A stretch of DNA of 64,000 nucleotides. Origin: Alphaproteobacteria bacterium (lineage in GTDB: Bacteria > Pseudomonadota > Alphaproteobacteria > Rhizobiales > Hyphomicrobiaceae). Below, one piece after another: positions 28,611 through 37,428 of this stretch. The translations under genes and the position numbers were made by a program. The DNA lies in contig JAHJSN010000036.1 in NCBI GenBank assembly GCA_018830445.1, positions 2,096-66,095 of the forward strand. Reading direction: 5' to 3'. Numbering within the stretch: the stretch's first letter is position 1; each line of letters begins with the position of its first letter. Below the pieces are notes generated by a model. The model worked only from the letters and a program-made list of their open reading frames with translations. It did no database searches and was not told the DNA's origin.

Positions 28611-29801
28611 ATGGCTACCAGCGACGCCGTCCCACCGGGTGTCGAAACGTCCCCAGGTCGAGGCGAGCAGACTCGCACCGCCGCGAAAGATCACCGCCTC
28701 TTGGATCACTTGGCCGCCTGGCGGGTCAAGACCGCCCATGCTTTTGCGACTCAGATCGGCGAATTGATCGCATTCGTGCGCCGTAACCTCTTTTACGCAT
28801 ATCTTTCGACCTGTGCCCTGTCGGTATTTTCACTCGCCATGAACCTGCTTGCACTGGCTGGAACCCTCAAGATCGCCTCGATGGTATTGTTCGATTGGAG
28901 CAAAGCGATCAAGCTCGCCGCAGCCTTGGGAATATCCATTGAAGGCGCCACGAAAGTCGACGTCGCCTGGATCGGCGCGGGCATCATCCTGCCGATCTAT
29001 CTTACCGCCGGTATTGCCGCCTTCATGGCCAGGAGAAGCCAGGTTGCATTGTCGGGGGAAGCCGAACGCGTTCTCTACCAGCGCTGCCTCCACCACCCCT
29101 CGCTGGACAGGCTTCTTAGGTCGGAAAATTTCCGCGCGTCAGCCCAGCGCGCCATCACCGTCTACGCGAATAGCTGCTTGTCCCTGGCGCTGATCCCCGG
29201 CCAGACGACTCTTTGCGCGATCATCGTGGTGATCCTCGCCTTCTTCCAGCCGATGCTGATAGCAATCGTTCTGGTCGTGCTGCTGCCGCTGCTGCTGCTC
29301 TATCTCGTGACTGGCAGGCGAGCGAGCGCCGCCAATACAATCCTCAAGGTCACGGATGCAAATCGCAAATTGCTCTTTCGTTCCATCATCGCCAACAAGC
29401 GCCAGGAGACATCCGCCGAAGCGCTGCAATCCACGCGCGACCAAATCCTGCAACTGACCGACGATATAGCAAGACAACGCTCCGTAGTCAGAGCCACCAA
29501 ATCGATCCCCGAGGCCGCGCTGTCTATCGTAACCGGATGCGTTCTGGCAACCGCCGTGGTTGTCCTGGCCAGCACGCCCGCGACCTCTGAACGCCTGATC
29601 TACCTGCTTATCGGATTCATCATGATCCGGTTTATGTTCGGTTACTTGAGAGGTGCGTTCGCGCAAATCCAGTCGATCGTGCAGAATCTCGACGAGATCC
29701 GCTTCATCAACAGCACGATCCTGAGCGAAAGCGTGACCGATGGAACCGAGATTCTGTTGGGTCGAGACGACGACGACGAACTCGACGATGCGGAAGAGTG
29801 A
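28611..29801 (+). CDS. Membrane protein with ABC-exporter-like 6-TM topology but no nucleotide-binding domain
   Basis: The TM1-2 / long loop / TM3-4 / long loop / TM5-6 arrangement is typical of type I ABC exporter TMDs. No Walker A/B or LSGGQ motif is present. It has an acidic C-terminus and starts 13 nt after the cysNC stop. Confidence 0.5.
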   Translation: MATSDAVPPGVETSPGRGEQTRTAAKDHRLLDHLAAWRVKTAHAFATQIGELIAFVRRNLFYAYLSTCALSVFSLAMNLLALAGTLKIASMVLFDWSKAIKLAAALGISIEGATKVDVAWIGAGIILPIYLTAGIAAFMARRSQVALSGEAERVLYQRCLHHPSLDRLLRSENFRASAQRAITVYANSCLSLALIPGQTTLCAIIVVILAFFQPMLIAIVLVVLLPLLLLYLVTGRRASAANTILKVTDANRKLLFRSIIANKRQETSAEALQSTRDQILQLTDDIARQRSVVRATKSIPEAALSIVTGCVLATAVVVLASTPATSERLIYLLIGFIMIRFMFGYLRGAFAQIQSIVQNLDEIRFINSTILSESVTDGTEILLGRDDDDELDDAEE

Positions 29802-29849
29802 CCCCGTTCGCAATTGTGCTCGGACCTTATAGGCCGCATCGGTCGAACT

Positions 29850-31334
29850 CTAGAGGATCACATCGTCATCATCGATGAGGTTATGATCGACATTGACGAG
29901 CCTGACGCCGCTGCCCCCGTAGGAAACGATGGTATCAGCCCCATCGTCGTTGATGGAAAGCTGTCTGACCGAGTTGAGGCCGGCGACCCTGCTCAAGTCC
30001 AGAAGATCCTCACCGACGGTGAAATTGACGATCCTGTCGAACCCCCAGCGGCCTGCGAAAACCGCCATATCGATCCCGCTGCTAAACACGTGGAGATCGT
30101 TGCCAGCGCCGCCGAGCAGGACATCGTTTCCGCCTCCCGCGAACAATCGGTCGGCGCCGCCGCCGCCCACCAGCCTGTCATTGCCCGACTGCCCCCTCAG
30201 GACGTCGTTTCCGGCCCCGCCAAAGAGCTGGTCGTGATCGTTTCCGCCGACCAGAATGTCATTGCCATGCGCCCCGAAAAGCCGGTCGTTGCCTGCCTGC
30301 CCGAACAGTTGATCTATTCCGACAGCGCCGCTGAGCCTATCATCGCCGTTATTGCCGAAAAGGCGATCATTGCCTGCCAGACCATTGACCACATCGTTCC
30401 CGTCACCGGCCTGGATGACGTTTCGAACCTGGTTGCCGATAATTACATCTCTCGCCGATCCACCCGTGGCGTTTTCGATGATCACGCCGTTGGCTATGGT
30501 AAAGCCGCCATAGACCCCCTCCGCGCTGGAAAGCCTTCCCCCGGCATAAGCATCGCCACTGCGTAGCGACGCAGCACGCAAATCGATGGTCGATTCTTCA
30601 TCGCCGCCGTAGACGATGCTGTCGCGTCCACCGCTATCCCAGATTGTTTCGTAGAAGGTGCCGACGTCATTCCCCTCAGGCAGTCGGTAGGTATCGTTTC
30701 CTGTTCGGTAGCTATTGTTGGCGCCATACATCTTCTGGATCGCATGGATGTCGAAGGCCATCGGCCCTCCCGACCAGCCGTAACCGGGAGTGACATCAGG
30801 ATCCAGATTATCAGCGAGCCGCCCGTCATTATATCCCATGACGGTATAGAGGCCCTGGTTATGGCCGAACCTGCCGCTATCGAATTGGTTGTCGACTCCC
30901 GGAAAGAGCCCGGATCCGCCTATGCGGTCGTGCGTGTGAGCCATGCCCAAGCCGTGACCGACTTCGTGCAGGATCGTCACGAATCCGTAGCCGCCCTTCT
31001 CAAGGCCGCCATTTACGTTGGCGTAATCCCACCCCGTGCCCTCGTAGTTGAAGTAACCTTGCTGCTGGCCGCCCCACGGCATTTCGAACGAACCAAGCGT
31101 ATCTGACCCAACCACCGAGTTGTCGACGTTATGCAGGATGAAGTCCGCAATCGAGGCATTCGCCGTCTGCACGAAGTGGATATTGGCAACGTTCGACCAT
31201 TGCGACAGCGCGATCGAAAACTGCGCTTTCTCATATGAATTCCAGAGAAAATAGTCATCGCTGAAGTGATACGAGATCGTATTGCTTGACACCCGATCAC
31301 CGCTGTCGAGCGCCTCGTAATATACATTTGCCAT
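29850..31334 (-). CDS. Serralysin-family zinc metalloprotease with RTX calcium-binding repeats
   Basis: Metzincin site HEVGHGLGMAHTH, a Met-turn-like TVMGY, then more than 10 GGxGxD-type nonapeptides (GNDRLFGNNGDDRL...GGAGNDVL...) and an acidic-hydrophobic C-terminus (DDDDVIL) typical of T1SS substrates. Confidence 0.9.
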   Translation of the reverse strand: MANVYYEALDSGDRVSSNTISYHFSDDYFLWNSYEKAQFSIALSQWSNVANIHFVQTANASIADFILHNVDNSVVGSDTLGSFEMPWGGQQQGYFNYEGTGWDYANVNGGLEKGGYGFVTILHEVGHGLGMAHTHDRIGGSGLFPGVDNQFDSGRFGHNQGLYTVMGYNDGRLADNLDPDVTPGYGWSGGPMAFDIHAIQKMYGANNSYRTGNDTYRLPEGNDVGTFYETIWDSGGRDSIVYGGDEESTIDLRAASLRSGDAYAGGRLSSAEGVYGGFTIANGVIIENATGGSARDVIIGNQVRNVIQAGDGNDVVNGLAGNDRLFGNNGDDRLSGAVGIDQLFGQAGNDRLFGAHGNDILVGGNDHDQLFGGAGNDVLRGQSGNDRLVGGGGADRLFAGGGNDVLLGGAGNDLHVFSSGIDMAVFAGRWGFDRIVNFTVGEDLLDLSRVAGLNSVRQLSINDDGADTIVSYGGSGVRLVNVDHNLIDDDDVIL

Positions 31335-31585: not shown

Positions 31586-32608
31586 TTAGCATTCCGTTAG
31601 CACACGTGCGACCTCCGGGCGATCCGGCGCAGCGCATCCGTATGTCGAATCCGGATATCGCAACTTCTTCGCGAACCGAGAAGCCATCGAATTCCTCGCG
31701 ATGGCTGCAAAATCCCGCTTCGAGAAGCCGAACGCCTGTTCGACGAGGGCGAACTCGCTTGCCATGTCGCAATCGAACGCGCCTGGATCGTCTGTGTTGA
31801 TGCTGAAATTCATTGCAAGATCGCGGGCCCGGCCGACCGGATGGCAGGCCATGTCGCGGACCGCACCCATTTTCAGGTTGCTGGTCGGGCAGAATTCGAT
31901 GTGAACGTTCTCCTCGCGCAGGCGCTCGATGAGACGGTCATCCTGAAAAGCGGCGATGCCGTGCCCGATCCTGTCGGCACGCCCGACATCGAGCGCTTCG
32001 GCAACTTCATCTGGTCCACCCAATTCGCCTGCGTGAATCTCTATCCCCAGCCCGCAATCCTTGAGCGCGTCGAACATGCGCATGAATCGCGTCACCGGAC
32101 GGTCCCGTTCCAGCCCGGCAATGGATATCCCGCAGATCCCGCCGGTTTCCGCGAGCGCAACGCAGCGAGCTATGTCCTTGTCGATGAGATCGTCGGGTAG
32201 GCTGCGCGGAATGAGGAACAGGAACTCGACCTGCACTTGCCCGCGCTCACACGCCGTCGCCCGCTCCCTGAATTCCGCGAACTGGTCGACCATTTCCGCG
32301 AGATCGCGCGAGAACATCGTCGGCGAGATCATCATCTCCGCATAGACGACGCCTTGCCGGCAGAGCGTTGCCATGTGCTGATCGAGGACCGGGAGATACC
32401 GGCGCCAATCCGCGCTCTTGTAGTGTTCGACGCGAACCAGCCAGTCCGCGAACCCCTGCGGACCTTCTTCGAACCCCACCGGCCGCAGCCGTTCGGGATC
32501 GGCCAGCAGCTGCTCACCCGTGGTTTCCAGCCGACGCAGGAGTTCCGCGTTCAGCGTCCCGATCAGATGGCAGTGGAGTTCAATTTTAGGTACCGCTTCA
32601 TGGACCAT
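31586..32608 (-). CDS. Adenosine/adenine deaminase-fold metallohydrolase
   Basis: IELHCHLIG (HxH), IEIHAGE, RIGHG and SINTDDPGAF are the adenosine deaminase superfamily catalytic motifs. The start was set at ATG 32608 (MVHEAVPK), 46 nt inside the preceding gene. The longer 432-aa ORF-track version is R-rich and looks non-coding. Confidence 0.85.
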   Translation of the reverse strand: MVHEAVPKIELHCHLIGTLNAELLRRLETTGEQLLADPERLRPVGFEEGPQGFADWLVRVEHYKSADWRRYLPVLDQHMATLCRQGVVYAEMMISPTMFSRDLAEMVDQFAEFRERATACERGQVQVEFLFLIPRSLPDDLIDKDIARCVALAETGGICGISIAGLERDRPVTRFMRMFDALKDCGLGIEIHAGELGGPDEVAEALDVGRADRIGHGIAAFQDDRLIERLREENVHIEFCPTSNLKMGAVRDMACHPVGRARDLAMNFSINTDDPGAFDCDMASEFALVEQAFGFSKRDFAAIARNSMASRFAKKLRYPDSTYGCAAPDRPEVARVLTEC

Positions 32609-34053
32609 TTGTCGCCCTTCGGGTTCATCGGCGGAACGATATCGACATAGCCGTCCTGGGAGACGATGAAGATCATCGACGGATACTTGCTGCTGGTTAC
32701 GTAGTTGGCAGCCGAGTTGTAGCGTCCGCCGCGCTGCCAGGTGCCGCTCGGTGTCGAGCCCCCGTCCATGATCGCGCCGACCGCATGCACGTTCCCCTCG
32801 ACATCGGCGATCAGCGTTCCGTCGATCGCCGTCAGCTGCGTCGTTACTTCCGGTGTCAACGCCACCGGACGGATCGGAATGCATTGCGAAGACAGCCGTT
32901 GCGCTTCATGCCGCGCGCCCGGAGTGAACAGGATGTTGGTCCCAACCGGCTGCTCTGCTGCGATCGTCGCGATGTTCCAAAGCGTTTCCAGCCCCACGGC
33001 ATCGACCATCGGCAGGCATTTCTTCACGTGCGCCTGGAAAACGTCCTTGGTGAGAATCCGGTCGACCTCCACCGGCGTGCCATAGGAGACCATCCCAAGC
33101 AGCTGTTCGCCGCGCTGCATGGTCCAGATGCCACGCCCCTTGAACAGGATCTGGTGGCATTCCTGGATCTGGTCGAAATCGACAAAGCCATAGAAGTAGT
33201 CGCCATCGAACAAGAGCGCGAACTGCTGGGAAGCCATTTCGATGAGCTTGCGCGCACCGGTATTGTGCGACAGGTGGATAGGCCGCCGGAACTCGATGCT
33301 CGGCTTGATATTGGCGCTACCCCGCTTTGCCAGCACGATATATCCAGCGCCTGCGCGCCCCTCGTACTGCGCCGCCGCCAGGTCGCAGCACAATTCATAG
33401 AGGCCGTAATTCATCCGGCCTGTCGCTTCCTGGGAAAGTTTCTGCAGGTAGAGCTGGGCTGCCGCCCGCGACAAGAGATCGGGAGCGAGCCCGAAGAACG
33501 TGTCCGAATGGCGCGGCGACAGGCAGTACTGCAACGAAACGTAGACCAGCGCATCGAACAGCCGCTTGATCTCGAAAGGACGAGGTTTTCCGCGAGCCTC
33601 TTGAGCATCGTTCGATGTGTCCGTTCCGGCTACCGGCTCACGCCGGGAAATGAGGAACCCCACAGTACGGTGATCGATATCGGTCCGCGTCGACTTGTAG
33701 ACGAACTCGCCTTGCTCGCAGCCAATCTCGAGCCCATCGAAGTAACCCAGAATCGCTTCCTCGATAGCCGGATCGCGCTCATCCTCGCACGACACGAGCT
33801 CTATGCACTTGCTGTTGGCGGCCCGCTTCCTGCGGCTGGACTCGATGAAGACGGGAGTCGTATCGACGCTGGATGCGATCTGGACCCCATCCGAATCGTG
33901 GATCATCACGACGAAGGTGATGTCGCAATCCGCATTGAACTTGACCAGAAGGCTTCGAACTTGCTCGAAAGACTCCAGCGATACCAGGATGCGCTTACCC
34001 GCCGACGGCGCCTGCGGCTGCCGCTGCGGCCTTGTTTCCGGTTCTTTCAACAC
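32563..34053 (-). CDS. Uncharacterised 496-aa protein with a C-terminal DisA_N/diadenylate-cyclase-like (DAC-like) module
   Basis: The C-terminal 110 aa align by eye to the DAC core: TAIDGTLIADVEGNVHAVGAIMDG (DGA segment), GGRYNSAANYV (GTRHRAA segment) and SMIFIVSQDGYVDIV (VSEETG segment). I recognise nothing in the N-terminal 350 aa. GTG start. Confidence 0.55.
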   Translation of the reverse strand: MLKEPETRPQRQPQAPSAGKRILVSLESFEQVRSLLVKFNADCDITFVVMIHDSDGVQIASSVDTTPVFIESSRRKRAANSKCIELVSCEDERDPAIEEAILGYFDGLEIGCEQGEFVYKSTRTDIDHRTVGFLISRREPVAGTDTSNDAQEARGKPRPFEIKRLFDALVYVSLQYCLSPRHSDTFFGLAPDLLSRAAAQLYLQKLSQEATGRMNYGLYELCCDLAAAQYEGRAGAGYIVLAKRGSANIKPSIEFRRPIHLSHNTGARKLIEMASQQFALLFDGDYFYGFVDFDQIQECHQILFKGRGIWTMQRGEQLLGMVSYGTPVEVDRILTKDVFQAHVKKCLPMVDAVGLETLWNIATIAAEQPVGTNILFTPGARHEAQRLSSQCIPIRPVALTPEVTTQLTAIDGTLIADVEGNVHAVGAIMDGGSTPSGTWQRGGRYNSAANYVTSSKYPSMIFIVSQDGYVDIVPPMNPKGDKWSMKRYLKLNSTAI

Positions 34054-34110
34054 GATTGACTATGCCTCATCTTTATACTGGCCACAGCGGCGTCACCTTG
34101 CCCATCGCCC

Positions 34111-34995
34111 TCATGCCGGAGCCATGATATCGCGGAAATCCCCGCCGCCGGCGACATACATGTCCTCGAGCTTTGGCAGCGTCTTGAACTTCGCATTTCC
34201 GAACCACGCCGCCCCATTGACATCGACCTCCCTCATATCGACGAGTTCAAGAAAGCTTGCACCTTCGAAGCCGCAGGTTTTCTGAAACATCGCACGCGAG
34301 AACGAAGCCGGCCCGGAGAACTCGCAATTGGTGAACGCCGCCGAGTCGCCGAATCGCGCATCGGAGAATTCGGCCGAGTTGATCTTGGAGTCCGTAAACC
34401 ATGCGCCGCGCGCAAAATCGATGGACTCGAACATTGCTTGCCCGAGGATTTGCGATTGCCGGAATTGCCCCGGCTGCATGAATACTGAGTTCGCAAAATC
34501 GGCAAGACCGTAGAAGGTTGCCCGCTCGAAACTGGCTTCCCCCATGAACGAGACCTGGCGGAAAACCGCCGAACCGTAGAACGTCGAGCCCTGGAACCAG
34601 CAGTCGGCCTCGAATTCGCTTCCGCAGAAATCGGCACGTCCAGGAAACACCAGGGCAGCGAAATCGACGTCCTCGGTAAACCGCGTTCCCGAGAAGTTGG
34701 CGATTGCAAGCGCATCGCACACGGCAACCAGCGCCGGATCGCTTCCTGCGAGACCGCGCACCTCAAGCATATTCTGCGACCAGGAATTCCATGCCGCGCG
34801 CCCCGCCGCGAACCGGCCCATCGTTGCAAGACGCTGCTCGAAATGGGCCTTCTCCGAGATCGGGCCGATATCGCCGAGCAGAGCCCGGGCAAGCTGTACG
34901 ATGTCGTCCCCGTAGTCTGTATTGTCGACCCACGGGTTGAGGAGCTTCAACTCCGCGACGACCGTTGAATTACGCTGTGGATTGAACTTTGTCAT
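34111..34995 (-). CDS. Pentapeptide-repeat protein
   Basis: About 35 consecutive A(D/N)LxF-type pentapeptides (ANFSGTRFTEDVDFAALVFPGRADFCGSEFEADCWFQGSTFYGSAVFRQVSF...) after a non-repeat N-terminal region of about 95 aa. Confidence 0.88.
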   Translation of the reverse strand: MTKFNPQRNSTVVAELKLLNPWVDNTDYGDDIVQLARALLGDIGPISEKAHFEQRLATMGRFAAGRAAWNSWSQNMLEVRGLAGSDPALVAVCDALAIANFSGTRFTEDVDFAALVFPGRADFCGSEFEADCWFQGSTFYGSAVFRQVSFMGEASFERATFYGLADFANSVFMQPGQFRQSQILGQAMFESIDFARGAWFTDSKINSAEFSDARFGDSAAFTNCEFSGPASFSRAMFQKTCGFEGASFLELVDMREVDVNGAAWFGNAKFKTLPKLEDMYVAGGGDFRDIMAPA

Positions 34996-35309
34996 CGGCC
35001 TGGCTGATCCAACTCTTCGAGTTTGCCCGAGAGTTCAAGTCAGCACCAAGCAATCGACGCTGGAACCGGGACCAGTTCGTTTCAATTTGCATCAAAACGA
35101 AATGCACCTTTCAACTCTCGAACGTCACCGCCGTAAGCTCTCCCATTGGTGGATGAGTTGCGTCGGACATTCCAGTTGAACGGTAATTGGTCTGCGTAAA
35201 GATACCGCTAAGTTTAACGGGAAAAGGCGTTTGATTAACCTCTTCTGGAGACCGTCGAATCTGTCCCGGAAAGACTGCAAGCTCAACACTCTATCAAGCC
35301 GCCTGCTTT

Positions 35310-36514: not shown

Positions 36515-36723
36515 TGAAGGCCACTAGCGAAAACAATGGCTAAGTGTGTCGTTCAGCGCGCCTCAACTGACAACTCCTGTGCGGCACCAAAAGGTCAATT
36601 AAGGCGCGACGCCACACGAGCTCAAAGGATGAGAACCGTGACCATTTGGGCCAAAAACTTTCGCATAATCCTCATTTGTGCAATTGCTAAGATGCGCTGA
36701 ACAATAACGGAGTTCGCTTGAGA

Positions 36724-37428
36724 ATGCCACGCTACGCAAAAATCGTCATCCTGACCGGAGCCGGATTATCCGCAGAATCGGGACTGGCTACGTTCCGCGA
36801 TACCGGCGGCATCTGGGCCAAGTACGATTATCGCGACGTGGCGACCCCAGACGGCTTCCAGCGCAACCCCAACCTCGTCTATGATTTCTATAACATGCGC
36901 CGCCGCGAGAGCGCCAATGCCGCACCCAACGCCGCCCACGAAGCGCTGGCGCGCATTCAGCGCGATTACCCAGGCGACGTTCTCCTCGTCACCCAGAACA
37001 TCGACAATCTTCTGGAGCAGGCCGGAGCCGAAAAGATCATCCACATGCACGGCGAGATGACCAGGATGCTCTGCACGCATTGCGATGCGCGACTGCCGTG
37101 GGCCGCAGACCTTTCCCCCGACCTTGCCTGCCCGGAATGCGAATTGATCGGCGGCATGCGCCCGGCAGTCGTCTGGTTCGGAGAGGTTCCCTATGAGATG
37201 GCCCGCATCGCCAAAGCGCTCGGCGAATGCGACCTGTTCATATCTATCGGCACCAGCGGCAACGTCTACCCGGCGGCAAGTTTCGTCGCAGCCGCCAGCG
37301 AGGCAGGCGCACACACCGTCGAAATCAACCTGGAACCTTCGGACACGACAAACTATTTCGCCGAGCACCTGCACGGCCCCGCCACCGAAATTGTGCCGTC
37401 CTACATCGAGCGCCTGCTCGCCGGGTAG
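36724..37428 (+). CDS. cobB: NAD-dependent protein deacylase (sirtuin, CobB/Sir2 family)
   Basis: VILTGAGLSAESGLATFRD..GIW, QNIDNL, HG......C..C and a zinc ribbon C-x2-C...C-x2-C (CTHC...CPEC), then GTSG.VYPAA. Confidence 0.93.
   Translation: MPRYAKIVILTGAGLSAESGLATFRDTGGIWAKYDYRDVATPDGFQRNPNLVYDFYNMRRRESANAAPNAAHEALARIQRDYPGDVLLVTQNIDNLLEQAGAEKIIHMHGEMTRMLCTHCDARLPWAADLSPDLACPECELIGGMRPAVVWFGEVPYEMARIAKALGECDLFISIGTSGNVYPAASFVAAASEAGAHTVEINLEPSDTTNYFAEHLHGPATEIVPSYIERLLAG

Follow-up and report, generated by a model that had tools for sequence, protein, structure and literature searches.

A diadenylate cyclase-fold protein encoded beside a stand-alone adenosine deaminase in Filomicrobium: a candidate nucleotide-based module

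Canonical diadenylate cyclases (DACs) have housekeeping roles. A DAC protein, DS-2C, is required for anti-phage defence by DS-2, in which CBASS is combined with a DAC, and the DAC catalytic residues are needed for this function (DefensePredictor, PMC13092281); DS-2C from Hymenobacter (H. elongatus and H. wooponensis) produces c-di-AMP in vitro (Ragucci et al. 2026 preprint, 10.64898/2026.08.10.743927). The DACNH domain is itself a degenerate DAC-like domain (PanDA paper). Precedents for an adenosine deaminase (ADA) as an effector or signal enzyme are provided by Cad1 (PMC11645235), RADAR (PMC9994260), and Kongming (10.1101/2024.12.20.629578), the deaminase of which, KomA, acts on adenine nucleotides and yields an inosine nucleotide messenger. 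The literature searched contained no description of a DAC coupled with an ADA, and none of the PADLOC system models matches the operon described below. An earlier note on this DNA, which stated that the operon matched no named system, was supported in this respect; however, studies from 2026 on DS-2, PanDA, and Panoptoo have linked the DAC family to named systems.

The operon lies in a 64-kb stretch of DNA, which was analysed as a whole and is referred to here as the window, and consists of genes for a pentapeptide-repeat protein (PRP; gene 1), a DACNH-DAC protein (gene 2), and a stand-alone enzyme of the ADA superfamily (gene 3) (Table 1). The ORF listing of the window confirmed the three genes, and the earlier note was exact on the gap of 57 nt between genes 1 and 2 (34054..34110) and the overlap of 46 nt between genes 2 and 3 (32563..32608). 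The listed ORF for gene 3 is longer (31586..32884), and the gene was delimited as in Table 1 because its homologues begin at MVHEAVPK. The spacer 5' of the operon, also correctly described as low in GC, has 50% GC (34996..35309) versus 61% for the window. The order of the three genes is identical in each Filomicrobium/Hyphomicrobiaceae locus recovered, and their adjacency is, therefore, not a matter of chance.

Table 1. Positions of the genes, protein domains, and upstream element in the window
Feature	Position	Strand	Description
Gene 1, pentapeptide-repeat protein (PRP)	34111..34995	-	294 aa, ATG start
Gene 2, DACNH-DAC protein	32563..34053	-	496 aa, GTG start
Gene 3, stand-alone ADA superfamily enzyme, DAC-linked clade	31586..32608	-	340 aa
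Gene 2, orphan alpha/beta N-terminal domain and helical linker	33484..34053	-	residues 1 to ~190; AF2 model
Gene 2, DACNH domain	33136..33408	-	residues 216-306; Pfam PF21750, E = 1.2e-14, 54.5 bits vs cut-off 27
Gene 2, predicted diadenylate-cyclase (DisA_N) fold domain	32629..33006	-	residues ~350-475; Foldseek of model and variant motifs
Gene 2, C-terminal tail (…KWSMKRYLKLNSTAI)	32563..32628	-	last 46 nt dual-coding with ADA gene start
Conserved 19-nt cis-element CTTAGCGGTATCTTTACGC	35194..35212	-	~200 nt before PRP start codon; intergenic alignment

Regarding gene 2, the top 50 PDB matches obtained by Foldseek with the model of its C-terminal domain were all DisA, CdaA, DacA, or DacM, the first being Mtb DisA (E = 7e-4) and CdaA/DacA having TM values of ~0.55-0.60. 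The module is thus predicted to have a DAC fold, in agreement with the earlier alignment of three of its segments to the DisA_N/DAC core; these segments are present as quoted, and IDGT, GGRYNSA, and VSQDG are invariant throughout the family alignment. Gene 2 itself scored under every DAC threshold of Pfam, and its family profile did not match the DAC sequences of the PDB, while two relatives exceeded the Pfam DAC gathering score (P0025, 29.5 bits; P0150, 30.6 bits). When paired with the canonical DGA, TRHRAA, and SEE motifs through an alignment with 2fb5, the motifs of gene 2 (D411-G-T413, R444-Y-N446, and S465-Q-D467) show DGT for DGA, RYN for RHR, and Gln in place of the first SEE Glu. Two Asp residues are invariant in the family, namely, the catalytic one of DG[AT] and the one opposite the second SEE Glu, a metal ligand in CdaA structures, and the variant motifs are strictly conserved across phyla.

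A search against the DS-2C family (NF053872) gave E = 1.6e-71 over residues 192-489, with 241 bits vs a cut-off of 630 bits. Gene 2 was rejected as a member of DS-2C/CdaG and is a relative only, its connection to the anti-phage protein DS-2C lying at the level of the DACNH-DAC superfamily, to which both belong. The DACNH domain is common to gene 2, DS-2C/CdaG, and short DACs of 290-310 aa. The RG-x-RYNS variant of RHR also occurs in Hymenobacter homologues with the DS-2C architecture (DACNG+DACNH+DAC), the sequences aligned here being other than the assayed DS-2C of H. elongatus and H. wooponensis.

Start/stop overlaps of 1-49 nt suggest that the DAC and ADA genes are translationally coupled: the overlap is 46-49 nt in four loci (L004, L005, L006, and L008) and 1-4 nt in short-DAC loci, and the C-terminal tail of gene 2 is retained in relatives down to 45% identity. 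Considering that this coupling suggests a stoichiometric complex, the DAC domain might have lost its cyclase activity and regulate the ADA only as a subunit that binds adenine nucleotides or dimerises; the resulting sensor-deaminase complex would be RADAR-like and use no second messenger. The three motif changes and the lack of a Pfam DAC match for the window protein are consistent with this explanation, and degeneration has a precedent in gene 2 since its DACNH domain is already degenerate. We nevertheless regard it as clearly improbable: both Asp residues are invariant, the motifs are maintained across phyla, and RYN is common to the DS-2C-type family, which includes active cyclases.

The N-terminal 350 aa of gene 2 had been described as unrecognisable, which does not apply to the ~90 residues of the DACNH domain, but does to residues 1 to ~190, for which no Pfam match was found. 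The core of this N-terminal domain was modelled with a pLDDT of ~80-90; it had no significant match in the PDB by Foldseek, its comparison with DACNG by hhalign gave a probability of 3.7%, and it is restricted to the long forms of Hyphomicrobiaceae, where it may receive an input or bind a partner. The PRP is composed of a conserved N-terminal region of ~65 aa, a WNxW cap, and beta-helix repeats, and matches Pfam Pentapeptide_3 (E = 5e-26) over five stretches. The N-terminal region of ~95 aa regarded as unique in the earlier note is truly unique for ~65 aa, but ends in the common WNxW cap. Qnr/MfpA was rejected as an assignment (NF033086, 16.9 bits vs cut-off 240). Only 18 homologues of the PRP were found, all of the Hyphomicrobiaceae lineage, and every Filomicrobium-type locus, as well as L005 and L006, has the PRP gene immediately 5' of the DAC gene. 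Relative to the DAC+ADA core, both the PRP and the extension at the N-terminus of gene 2 are Hyphomicrobiaceae additions.

Gene 3 encodes a complete ADA barrel (Pfam A_deaminase, E = 6e-55), in which HxH, HAGE, GHG, and NTDDP are all conserved, as previously noticed. It scored 198 bits against TIGR01430, below the housekeeping Add cut-off of 216.55, and belongs to a clade in which partner genes are always present; its interpretation as an ordinary housekeeping add gene without partners was, therefore, rejected. The PADLOC model CARF_ADA matched gene 3 over the ADA part of the model only (E = 2.7e-31), and the best match in the PDB was 3ou8 (E = 2e-30), Cad1 (9c67) being found with E = 7e-18. 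In adenosine deaminase, HxHL is followed by an Asp that binds the ribose 5'-OH. This Asp/Glu is replaced by Ile/Leu in the DAC-linked ADAs, the clade signature of which is HCHL[ILV]G. These enzymes are bare barrels of 320-340 aa, and a domain search revealed no recognisable dinucleotide-binding or sensor domain in them.

A survey of 89 DAC loci separated two groups: the gene adjacent to the DAC encoded an ADA in 24/24 DACs of the DGT/RGGRYNS/SQ[DE] type and in 0/65 of the DS-2C-like DGA/SEDG type. In an ADA-centred metagenome scan, those members of the clade for which upstream sequence was available had a DAC immediately 5' of the ADA. ADAs linked to a DAC, cytidine deaminase (CDA)-like, or STAND gene form one clade, and the sister clade has mixed housekeeping gene neighbours. 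The expectation that the partner genes co-occur in other genomes was thus borne out, and the trio proposed as a unit does have a fixed order in Filomicrobium/Hyphomicrobiaceae; however, this distribution indicates that the conserved core is a cross-phylum DACNH-DAC and ADA pair, with the PRP as a lineage-specific third partner. A short DAC and the ADA occur alone, with no third gene, in three loci (L093, L103, and L070), and the ADA is, therefore, the sole candidate output and DACNH the sole candidate input in these loci. A protein of the cytidine-deaminase fold takes the place of the DAC in a small subclade (L095 and L112). In at least 13 non-Filomicrobium loci, effector-nSTAND1-FGE-sulfatase NTPases adjoin the ADA, and these STAND NTPases bear TIR, trypsin, or CHAT effectors of their own.

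These neighbours may indicate that the ADA acts on a messenger pathway and is not an effector, the receptor or effector being encoded elsewhere; outside this lineage, for example, it could be the STAND NTPase next to the pair. The ADA may convert ATP to ITP as the cyclase substrate, convert c-di-AMP to an inosine-containing dinucleotide, or switch the signal off in the manner of a ring nuclease. The DGT and SQD changes co-vary perfectly with the presence of the ADA, as if the cyclase chemistry had adapted to its partner; moreover, the ADA has no sensor domain, and the stand-alone ADA of Kongming, which is of similar size, makes a messenger precursor and is not a killer. On the other hand, the pair is also found without a STAND protein or other candidate receiver, in the three loci with the minimal pair and in the window, and we know of no natural inosine cyclic dinucleotide. 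Since the DGA motif of canonical DACs contacts the ribose and phosphate and not the base, its alteration does not necessarily imply that another base is recognised. We consider this explanation to be unlikely.

In Filomicrobium, the order TrmA-CobB-MTase-[trio]-...-CysNC is syntenic in all recovered genomes, and the GC and GC3 of the trio are native to the genome; the trio is, therefore, not on an island. The impression of an accessory stretch was thus not sustained, nor was a location in a defence island, since no defence genes were found beside the trio within the window. A SIR2 gene 1.7 kb from the trio, on the opposite strand and syntenic with trmA, encodes a protein of 236 aa, which we read as a probable CobB-type sirtuin from its size and zinc-ribbon Cys pairs. 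Among the aligned intergenic regions, CTTAGCGGTATCTTTACGC is the sole invariant block; it occurs once per locus in 17/17 Filomicrobium-type loci, always 5' of the PRP gene, is absent from the remaining loci (0/159), and has one match in the window vs 0.04 expected. This element may serve the operon as its promoter or operator.

Given its fixed chromosomal position, the operon could serve Filomicrobium in physiology or under stress and not in defence against phages, and it may be a domesticated module for c-di-AMP or purine homeostasis, e.g., under osmotic or nutrient stress in this halotolerant genus, with no role in phage conflict. Its site by trmA-cobB and cysNC, its native composition, the absence of defence neighbours in the window, and the housekeeping roles of canonical DACs are in line with this possibility. 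The DAC is 78-91% identical across Filomicrobium species, comparable with the 81-85% of CysNC, and the conserved upstream element suggests dedicated regulation. Against it, DAC/ADA clades elsewhere are embedded in conflict-type contexts, with TIR/trypsin/CHAT-nSTAND1-FGE genes, IS elements, and a Phd/YefM-like fusion, the nearest characterised relative of the DAC is an anti-phage protein, and gene 3 is no orthologue of Add. We assign this possibility a low probability.

For the enzymatic activities, substrate, direction of control, and biological role of the operon, we infer, with a confidence just short of even, a nucleotide-based signalling or conflict/stress module with the ADA as its output. 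The DAC protein would constitute the input and signal part, with the degenerate DACNH domain as a candidate input; a further candidate, present in Hyphomicrobiaceae, is the additional N-terminal domain acting together with the PRP encoded upstream. The DAC domain would make a c-di-AMP-type dinucleotide or at least bind an adenine nucleotide, and the ADA would deaminate an adenine nucleotide, such as ATP/dATP to ITP/dITP as in Cad1 and RADAR, which may arrest the cell or starve a replicating invader. Governed by the dinucleotide or by a direct complex with the DAC protein, the ADA might be activated, as in CBASS, or released from repression, as in Panoptes/PanDA. Several points count against this module: gene 2 falls short of the Pfam DAC scores and its family profile missed the DACs of the PDB, catalysis could be weakened or modified by the DGT motif and by Gln at the first SEE Glu, no dinucleotide-binding domain is recognisable in the bare barrel of the ADA, and the CDA-like replacement of the DAC is hard to fit with a strictly dinucleotide-dependent ADA. 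Moreover, mobile defence systems typically differ from this operon, which in Filomicrobium is syntenic, native in composition, about as conserved as cysNC, and free of defence neighbours.

Among known deaminases, the housekeeping Add/Pa0148-type enzymes (PDB 3ou8) are TIM barrels like gene 3 and have every one of its metal and catalytic motifs, but carry Asp, or Glu in 3ou8, where its separate, gene-linked clade has Ile/Leu. Cad1, the CARF-ADA of type III CRISPR, has a homologous ADA domain and resembles the proposed operon in concept because its conversion of ATP to ITP by an ADA is under the control of a cyclic adenylate; however, its ADA is fused to CARF, whereas gene 3 has no CARF or other sensor domain, and its signal comes from Cas10, whereas that of the operon would come from the DAC. 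RADAR, which acts on ATP/dATP, similarly combines a sensor with an ADA output in two proteins (RdrA ATPase and RdrB), but RdrB has ~850 aa and matches gene 3 over ~40 residues only (24.5 bits vs cut-off 800), and the operon has no RdrA-type AAA+ ATPase. Kongming (KomA ADA, HAM1-like KomB, and SIR2 KomC) is, like the trio, a three-gene operon with a sensor-less PF00962 deaminase, but has HAM1-like and defence-type SIR2 partners that are absent from the present operon.

From the side of the cyclase, PanDA/Panoptoo, in which the minimal DAC PanS is paired with the 2TM-beta effector PanE, also consists of two genes, for a DAC protein and one effector-like partner, and c-di-AMP-type chemistry was apparently recruited outside its housekeeping role in both cases. 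PanS is a constitutively active, bare DAC of ~150 aa, whereas the DAC described here carries DACNH and further input domains, and PanE is a membrane beta-barrel protein, whereas gene 2 is paired with a soluble deaminase. DS-2C shares with gene 2 a homologous DACNH and DAC (~33% identity over residues 194-476), the RG-x-RYNS motif, and the nature of a cytoplasmic multi-domain DAC outside the housekeeping families. It differs in having DACNG where gene 2 has an unrelated N-terminal domain and in the motifs DGA/SED vs DGT/SQD, and its partners are a CD-NTase and a phospholipase, whereas gene 2 is partnered by an ADA, together with the PRP.

The three genes, which encode a pentapeptide-repeat protein (PRP, gene 1), a protein with a diadenylate cyclase (DAC) domain (gene 2), and a member of the adenosine-deaminase superfamily (ADA, gene 3), appeared in the ORF table as co-directional minus-strand genes with a 57-nt gap and a 46-nt overlap, which bears out the layout described in the earlier note, and the spacer 5' of them was, as noted there, lower in GC (50% vs 61% in the window). 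The composition of the trio is native (GC 0.59-0.61; GC3 0.71-0.77, similar to that of the neighbours). The stop/start overlap between DAC and ADA is kept among relatives, at 46-49 nt in the long forms and 1-4 nt in the short forms. The overlap in the window is dual-coding with both frames conserved.

Gene 1 matched Pentapeptide_3 in Pfam over five stretches (E = 5e-26), and its tandem A(D/N)LXX repeats, with a predicted right-handed beta-helix, are those of a PRP. A PDB sequence search with this protein returned no match, and an identity as a DNA-mimic PRP of the Qnr/MfpA type was rejected based on its score against NF033086 (16.9 bits vs a cut-off of 240). Its family comprises only 18 members, all within this lineage, and the PRP accompanies the long DAC protein in Filomicrobium-type genomes and in the loci L005 and L006.

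Features of the window and of the recovered loci (L numbers) with related genes
Feature	Locus	Coordinates	Strand	Remarks
Gene 1, PRP	window	34111..34995	-	294 aa (ORF table)
Gene 2, DAC protein	window	32563..34053	-	496 aa, GTG start (ORF table)
Gene 3, ADA	window	31586..32608	-	340 aa; start MVHEAVPK set from homologues; ORF ends at 31586
DAC/ADA overlap	window	32563-32608		DAC tail …RYLKLxSTAI (kept to relatives of 45% identity) and ADA N-terminus MVHE.VPK.ELHCH
Variable insert between ADA and cysNC	window	28611-31334		absent from five related genomes
Serralysin-like RTX peptidase	window	29850-31334	-	Peptidase_M10_C and HemolysinCabind
Membrane protein	window	28611-29801	+	396 aa; 15-bit PycTM match, probably noise
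SIR2 gene, CobB-type sirtuin	window	36718..37428	+	236 aa; typed by size and zinc-ribbon Cys pairs; syntenic with trmA
19-nt motif CTTAGnnnTnTCTTTACRC	window	35194-35212	-	once per Filomicrobium-type locus, at 200-260 nt 5' of the PRP start
Possible 7-bp hairpin TTCGTTT…AAACGAA	window	35076-35101	-	in the putative leader; kept only in the closest relatives (L010, partly L011)
nSTAND1-FGE NTPase	L005	5454-8846
nSTAND1-FGE NTPase	L007	7789-10950
nSTAND1-FGE NTPase	L009	5641-8874
nSTAND1-FGE NTPase	L023	11879-15067
nSTAND1-FGE NTPase	L090	8982-12467		followed by a Trypco1 gene
nSTAND1-FGE NTPase	L095	8982-12542
nSTAND1-FGE NTPase	L105, L108, L112 and others
S1-P1 nuclease	L007	11103-11909		73% identical to the copy of L023
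S1-P1 nuclease	L009	3894-4832
S1-P1 nuclease	L023	15191-15994
Second TIR protein and second, unrelated PRP	L005	13360-15305		2-4 kb downstream
Cytidine-deaminase-fold gene(s)	L095	7209-7973
Cytidine-deaminase-fold gene(s)	L096	557-1321
Cytidine-deaminase-fold gene(s)	L112	4582-6069

Regarding gene 2, Pfam assigned residues 216-306 to DACNH, a domain N-terminal to DAC (E = 1e-14), and residues 192-489 matched positions 201-503 of the 576 positions of the NCBIfam model NF053872, 'DS2_3_antiphage' (E = 1.6e-71), at 241.4 bits against a cut-off of 630. The assignment of the C-terminal module to DAC rests on structure and on relatives above the Pfam cut-off because PDB sequence searches with gene 2 and its family profile gave no DAC match; gene 2 itself did not match PF02457 at E <= 1, and its relatives P0025 and P0150 scored 29.5 and 30.6 bits (gathering cut-off 27). 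An AlphaFold2 model built on an alignment with 15 homologues (pLDDT 78, pTM 0.77) was compared with the PDB using Foldseek, and all of the top 50 matches were DisA, CdaA, DacA, or DacM, the best being DisA from M. tuberculosis (E = 7e-4), with a target-normalised TM of 0.5-0.6 for CdaA/DacA; the DAC fold, in which helices brace a central beta-sheet, was thereby confirmed in the model, as had been read from sequence in the earlier note. Residues 1-190 form a confidently folded alpha/beta domain in the same model, for which Foldseek found nothing significant in the PDB (best, a GAF domain, TM 0.34); residues 1-215 had no Pfam match, and hhalign gave a probability of only 3.7% for DACNG, the other domain N-terminal to DAC.

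When a DS-2C-like relative was aligned with 2fb5, a DAC structure, it became clear that the canonical motifs DGA, G-T-R-H-R-A-A, and S-E-E correspond in gene 2 to DGT, G-G-R-Y-N-S-A, and S-Q-D, and DGT, GRYN, and SQD are invariant throughout the gene 2 family. A catalytically dead DAC that serves as a regulatory subunit is a reading that these replacements would fit, and we consider it distinctly unlikely. The RYNS variant is also present in Hymenobacter proteins with the architecture of DS-2C, the DAC protein of the DS-2 anti-phage system (DACNG, DACNH, and DAC), with RYN/SED occurring in the DS-2C-type family, and DS-2C from H. elongatus and H. wooponensis, the sequences of which lie outside the alignment showing the variant, made c-di-AMP in vitro (Ragucci et al., 10.64898/2026.08.10.743927). 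The catalytic residues of DAC are also required for DS-2 defence (DefensePredictor, PMC13092281). Since RYNS is common to a family with active c-di-AMP synthases, the replacement of RHR is by itself no argument against the activity of gene 2.

The full-length architecture of gene 2 is rare, with 27 proteins in a word-indexed search and two or three representatives at 50% identity in an exhaustive search. The DACNH-DAC superfamily as a whole, with 2190 representatives, falls into two motif classes: the DGA/SEDG class of long DS-2C/CdaG-like proteins, and the DGT/RGGRYNS/SQDG class, to which the window type belongs along with numerous short proteins (290-310 aa) made up of DACNH and DAC only. 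Starting from the DAC, with each species represented by one genome, we detected an adjacent ADA in 24/24 DGT-class loci vs 0/65 DGA-class loci, and a scan of metagenomes that started from the ADA showed the converse linkage; co-occurrence in other genomes, on which the earlier proposal depended, was thus found for DAC and ADA. In a simple neighbour-joining tree of sequences from the latter scan, ADAs linked to a DAC, a cytidine-deaminase-fold gene, or a STAND NTPase formed a single clade, and its members with upstream sequence had the DAC immediately upstream, except for L095 and L112, with a cytidine-deaminase-fold gene in this position, and L099, with an upstream ORF without assignment. The neighbours of the sister clade were unrelated housekeeping genes. 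Short metagenomic contigs are the source of many of the gene contexts considered here.

Some variation was noted on the input side. In the Hyphomicrobiales loci L007 and L023, the DAC protein carries a different N-terminal domain and an SBP_bac_5-like gene takes the place of the PRP upstream; this suggests that the N-terminal extension and upstream gene may act jointly as input. P0149, a DGT-class DACNH-DAC protein of 393 aa, has a weak N-terminal match to the Phd/YefM antitoxin (23.8 bits vs a cut-off of 29.8), which hints at a possible toxin-antitoxin-like variant.

Gene 3 matched A_deaminase (PF00962, Pfam) with E = 6.4e-55, and its clade keeps the motifs HxH, HAGE, GHG, and NTDDP, with HxH, HAGE, GHG, and (N)TDD being invariant or nearly so in 23 members. 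In adenosine deaminases, the Asp after HxHL binds ribose. The corresponding residue is Ile or Leu in the ADA clade and Glu in 3ou8 (Pa0148-type), and, therefore, plain adenosine appears to be an unlikely substrate of the DAC-linked ADA. The score of gene 3 against TIGR01430 (Add), 198.4 bits, is just under the cut-off of 216.55. This score, the residue after HxHL, the separate clade, and the linkage to partner genes led us to reject housekeeping add as the identity of gene 3, and the deaminase is, as the earlier proposal required, other than the ordinary enzyme.

As to function, which we infer throughout for both the trio and the pair, a short DAC and ADA stand alone in L093, L103, and L070, and this minimal unit must, therefore, hold both input and output. 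We favour for this reason, tentatively and at slightly less than an even chance, an assignment of the DACNH-DAC protein as sensor and signal generator and of ADA as output on an adenine nucleotide. The DACNH-DAC protein would sense an input and generate a dinucleotide signal, and ADA would act on an adenine nucleotide; the dinucleotide would either activate ADA or repress it until a phage sponge removes the dinucleotide. CBASS (type I), Pycsar, or PanDA would provide the model for this logic, and Cad1/RADAR that for the output. This sensor-output assignment does not explain the replacement of DAC by a cytidine-deaminase-fold protein in L095 and L112. Signal editing or the synthesis of an inosine dinucleotide by the DAC-ADA pair is an unlikely alternative in our estimation, supported by the finding that the DGT/SQD site co-varies perfectly with ADA and by the precedent of Kongming, in which nucleotide signals are base-modified (10.1101/2024.12.20.629578). 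We regard as very unlikely the more specific proposal that the pair makes a base-modified cyclic dinucleotide, c-di-IMP or cyclic AMP-IMP, with ADA supplying ITP or deaminating c-di-AMP and DGT/SQD being an adaptation of the cyclase; neighbouring STAND NTPases or the PRP could then be the receivers. If true, inosine-containing cyclic dinucleotides would for the first time be known as natural messengers, and the Kongming principle would merge with cyclic-dinucleotide immunity.

Outside the Filomicrobium lineage, the pair adjoins a large NTPase of the effector-nSTAND1-FGE-sulfatase type in several phyla. We counted at least 13 such loci, a minimum figure because the length of the contigs restricts the count. 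The N terminus of the NTPase beside ADA is TIR, trypsin, or CHAT, and its orientation to ADA is usually tail-to-tail; these proteins are 1050-1200 aa long, with a C-type-lectin-like FGE-sulfatase domain and a varying effector end. They are predicted conflict sensors and targets of diversity-generating retroelements. No such NTPase was found in the window or any Filomicrobium-type locus. In some cases, the pair is also flanked by IS elements or an S1-P1 nuclease, the nuclease accompanying TIR-nSTAND1-FGE and the DAC-ADA block in three Hyphomicrobiales loci (L007, L009, and L023). Only in L005 does the complete trio of PRP, DAC, and ADA occur together with a TIR-nSTAND1-FGE NTPase. In a small subclade (L095, L096, and L112), one or two cytidine-deaminase-fold proteins (MafB19-deam/Bd3614-deam) replace DAC and still adjoin a CHAT-nSTAND1-FGE NTPase.

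In the window and every Filomicrobium-like genome recovered, the trio occupies one chromosomal site, in the order trmA-cobB-methyltransferase-[trio]-(RTX-type peptidase, membrane protein)-cysNC; cysNC directly follows ADA in five Filomicrobium-like genomes. The DAC protein is 78-91% identical across species, on par with CysNC, and no defence genes were found near the trio in the window, where the PADLOC matches of the trio neighbours were limited to a generic one for a methyltransferase and a single PycTM match of 15 bits, the latter regarded as noise. The stretch had been described as accessory-looking, which was not supported in this genome because the site is fixed, defence genes are lacking nearby, and DAC is as conserved as CysNC; a defence island or recent horizontal transfer was rejected here based on synteny and composition. 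The Filomicrobium version, chromosomally fixed and with an added PRP and N-terminal domain, may represent the domestication of a conflict module to serve host physiology, and a domesticated non-defence role in Filomicrobium is an explanation to which we assign a low probability. Upstream of the PRP gene, a candidate promoter or operator is provided by the 19-nt motif, which is kept even where the remaining intergenic region and upstream gene differ, and which was found in L001-L004, L010-L018, L020, L021, L097, and L098 and in none of the other 159 loci. Rfam searches detected no ydaO (c-di-AMP) or other riboswitch in the window or operon leader, including the putative leader hairpin; no tRNAs were found in the window, and scans for sigma-70 and terminator consensus sequences were uninformative.

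The DAC-ADA pairing, its active-site signature, the nSTAND1-FGE link, and the PRP-bearing three-gene form appear to be undescribed in the literature searched, outside of which lies Galperin's 2023 DAC classification, from which the name DACNH comes. Full-text searches returned nothing on DAC or nSTAND1 combined with an adenosine deaminase, and the deaminase partner is unmentioned in two papers on nSTAND1-FGE NTPases and in the two 2026 DAC preprints. The pair is small, soluble, and accessible to study with two proteins, and raises the questions of whether a bare ADA barrel is under the control of a dinucleotide or a pseudo-dimeric cyclase, whether inosine cyclic dinucleotides occur naturally, and why pairs adjoin nSTAND1-FGE-sulfatase NTPases, which are targets of diversity-generating retroelements in multicellular bacteria.

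We rate the trio and the pair among the nucleotide-second-messenger conflict modules, and the view that the trio matches no named system withstood comparison with DS-2, RADAR, Cad1, Kongming, and PanDA, each of which fails on a defining feature. DS-2C/CdaG (NF053872) has the architecture DACNG-DACNH-DAC, whereas gene 2 has DACNH without DACNG and is far below the equivalog cut-off; the DS-2 operon contains a CD-NTase and phospholipase (CBASS), whereas the neighbours here are PRP, ADA, a methyltransferase, and an RTX-type peptidase, with no CD-NTase or patatin gene in the trio flanks. Gene 2 is a relative of DS-2C/CdaG only. In PanDA/Panoptoo, the neighbour of a minimal DAC (~150 aa) is a 2TM-beta (S2TM-beta) effector, and membership is ruled out by the extra domains of the 496-aa protein and its soluble ADA partner. 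In Cad1, a CARF sensor is fused to ADA, whereas gene 3 is an ADA barrel alone, without CARF; the PADLOC CARF_ADA model matched it at positions 257-583 of 605, the ADA part only. RADAR consists of an ~850-aa RdrB and the RdrA ATPase, whereas the trio operon has no AAA+ gene, and gene 3 scored 24.5 bits over ~40 residues against NF041744 (cut-off 800). The ADA of Kongming is operonic with the HAM1-like KomB and SIR2 KomC, whereas no HAM1-like gene is present here and the SIR2 gene nearby is of the CobB type. DAC domains were shown in anti-phage immunity only in 2026, in DS-2 and PanDA/Panoptoo, with CBASS components or membrane effectors as partners. The present locus represents a third DAC arrangement, conserved across phyla, in which the DAC proteins form a clade apart, bear an active-site signature specific to that clade, and are strictly paired with an ADA dedicated to them, tying c-di-AMP-type signalling to the theme of adenine-nucleotide deamination in Cad1, RADAR, and Kongming.
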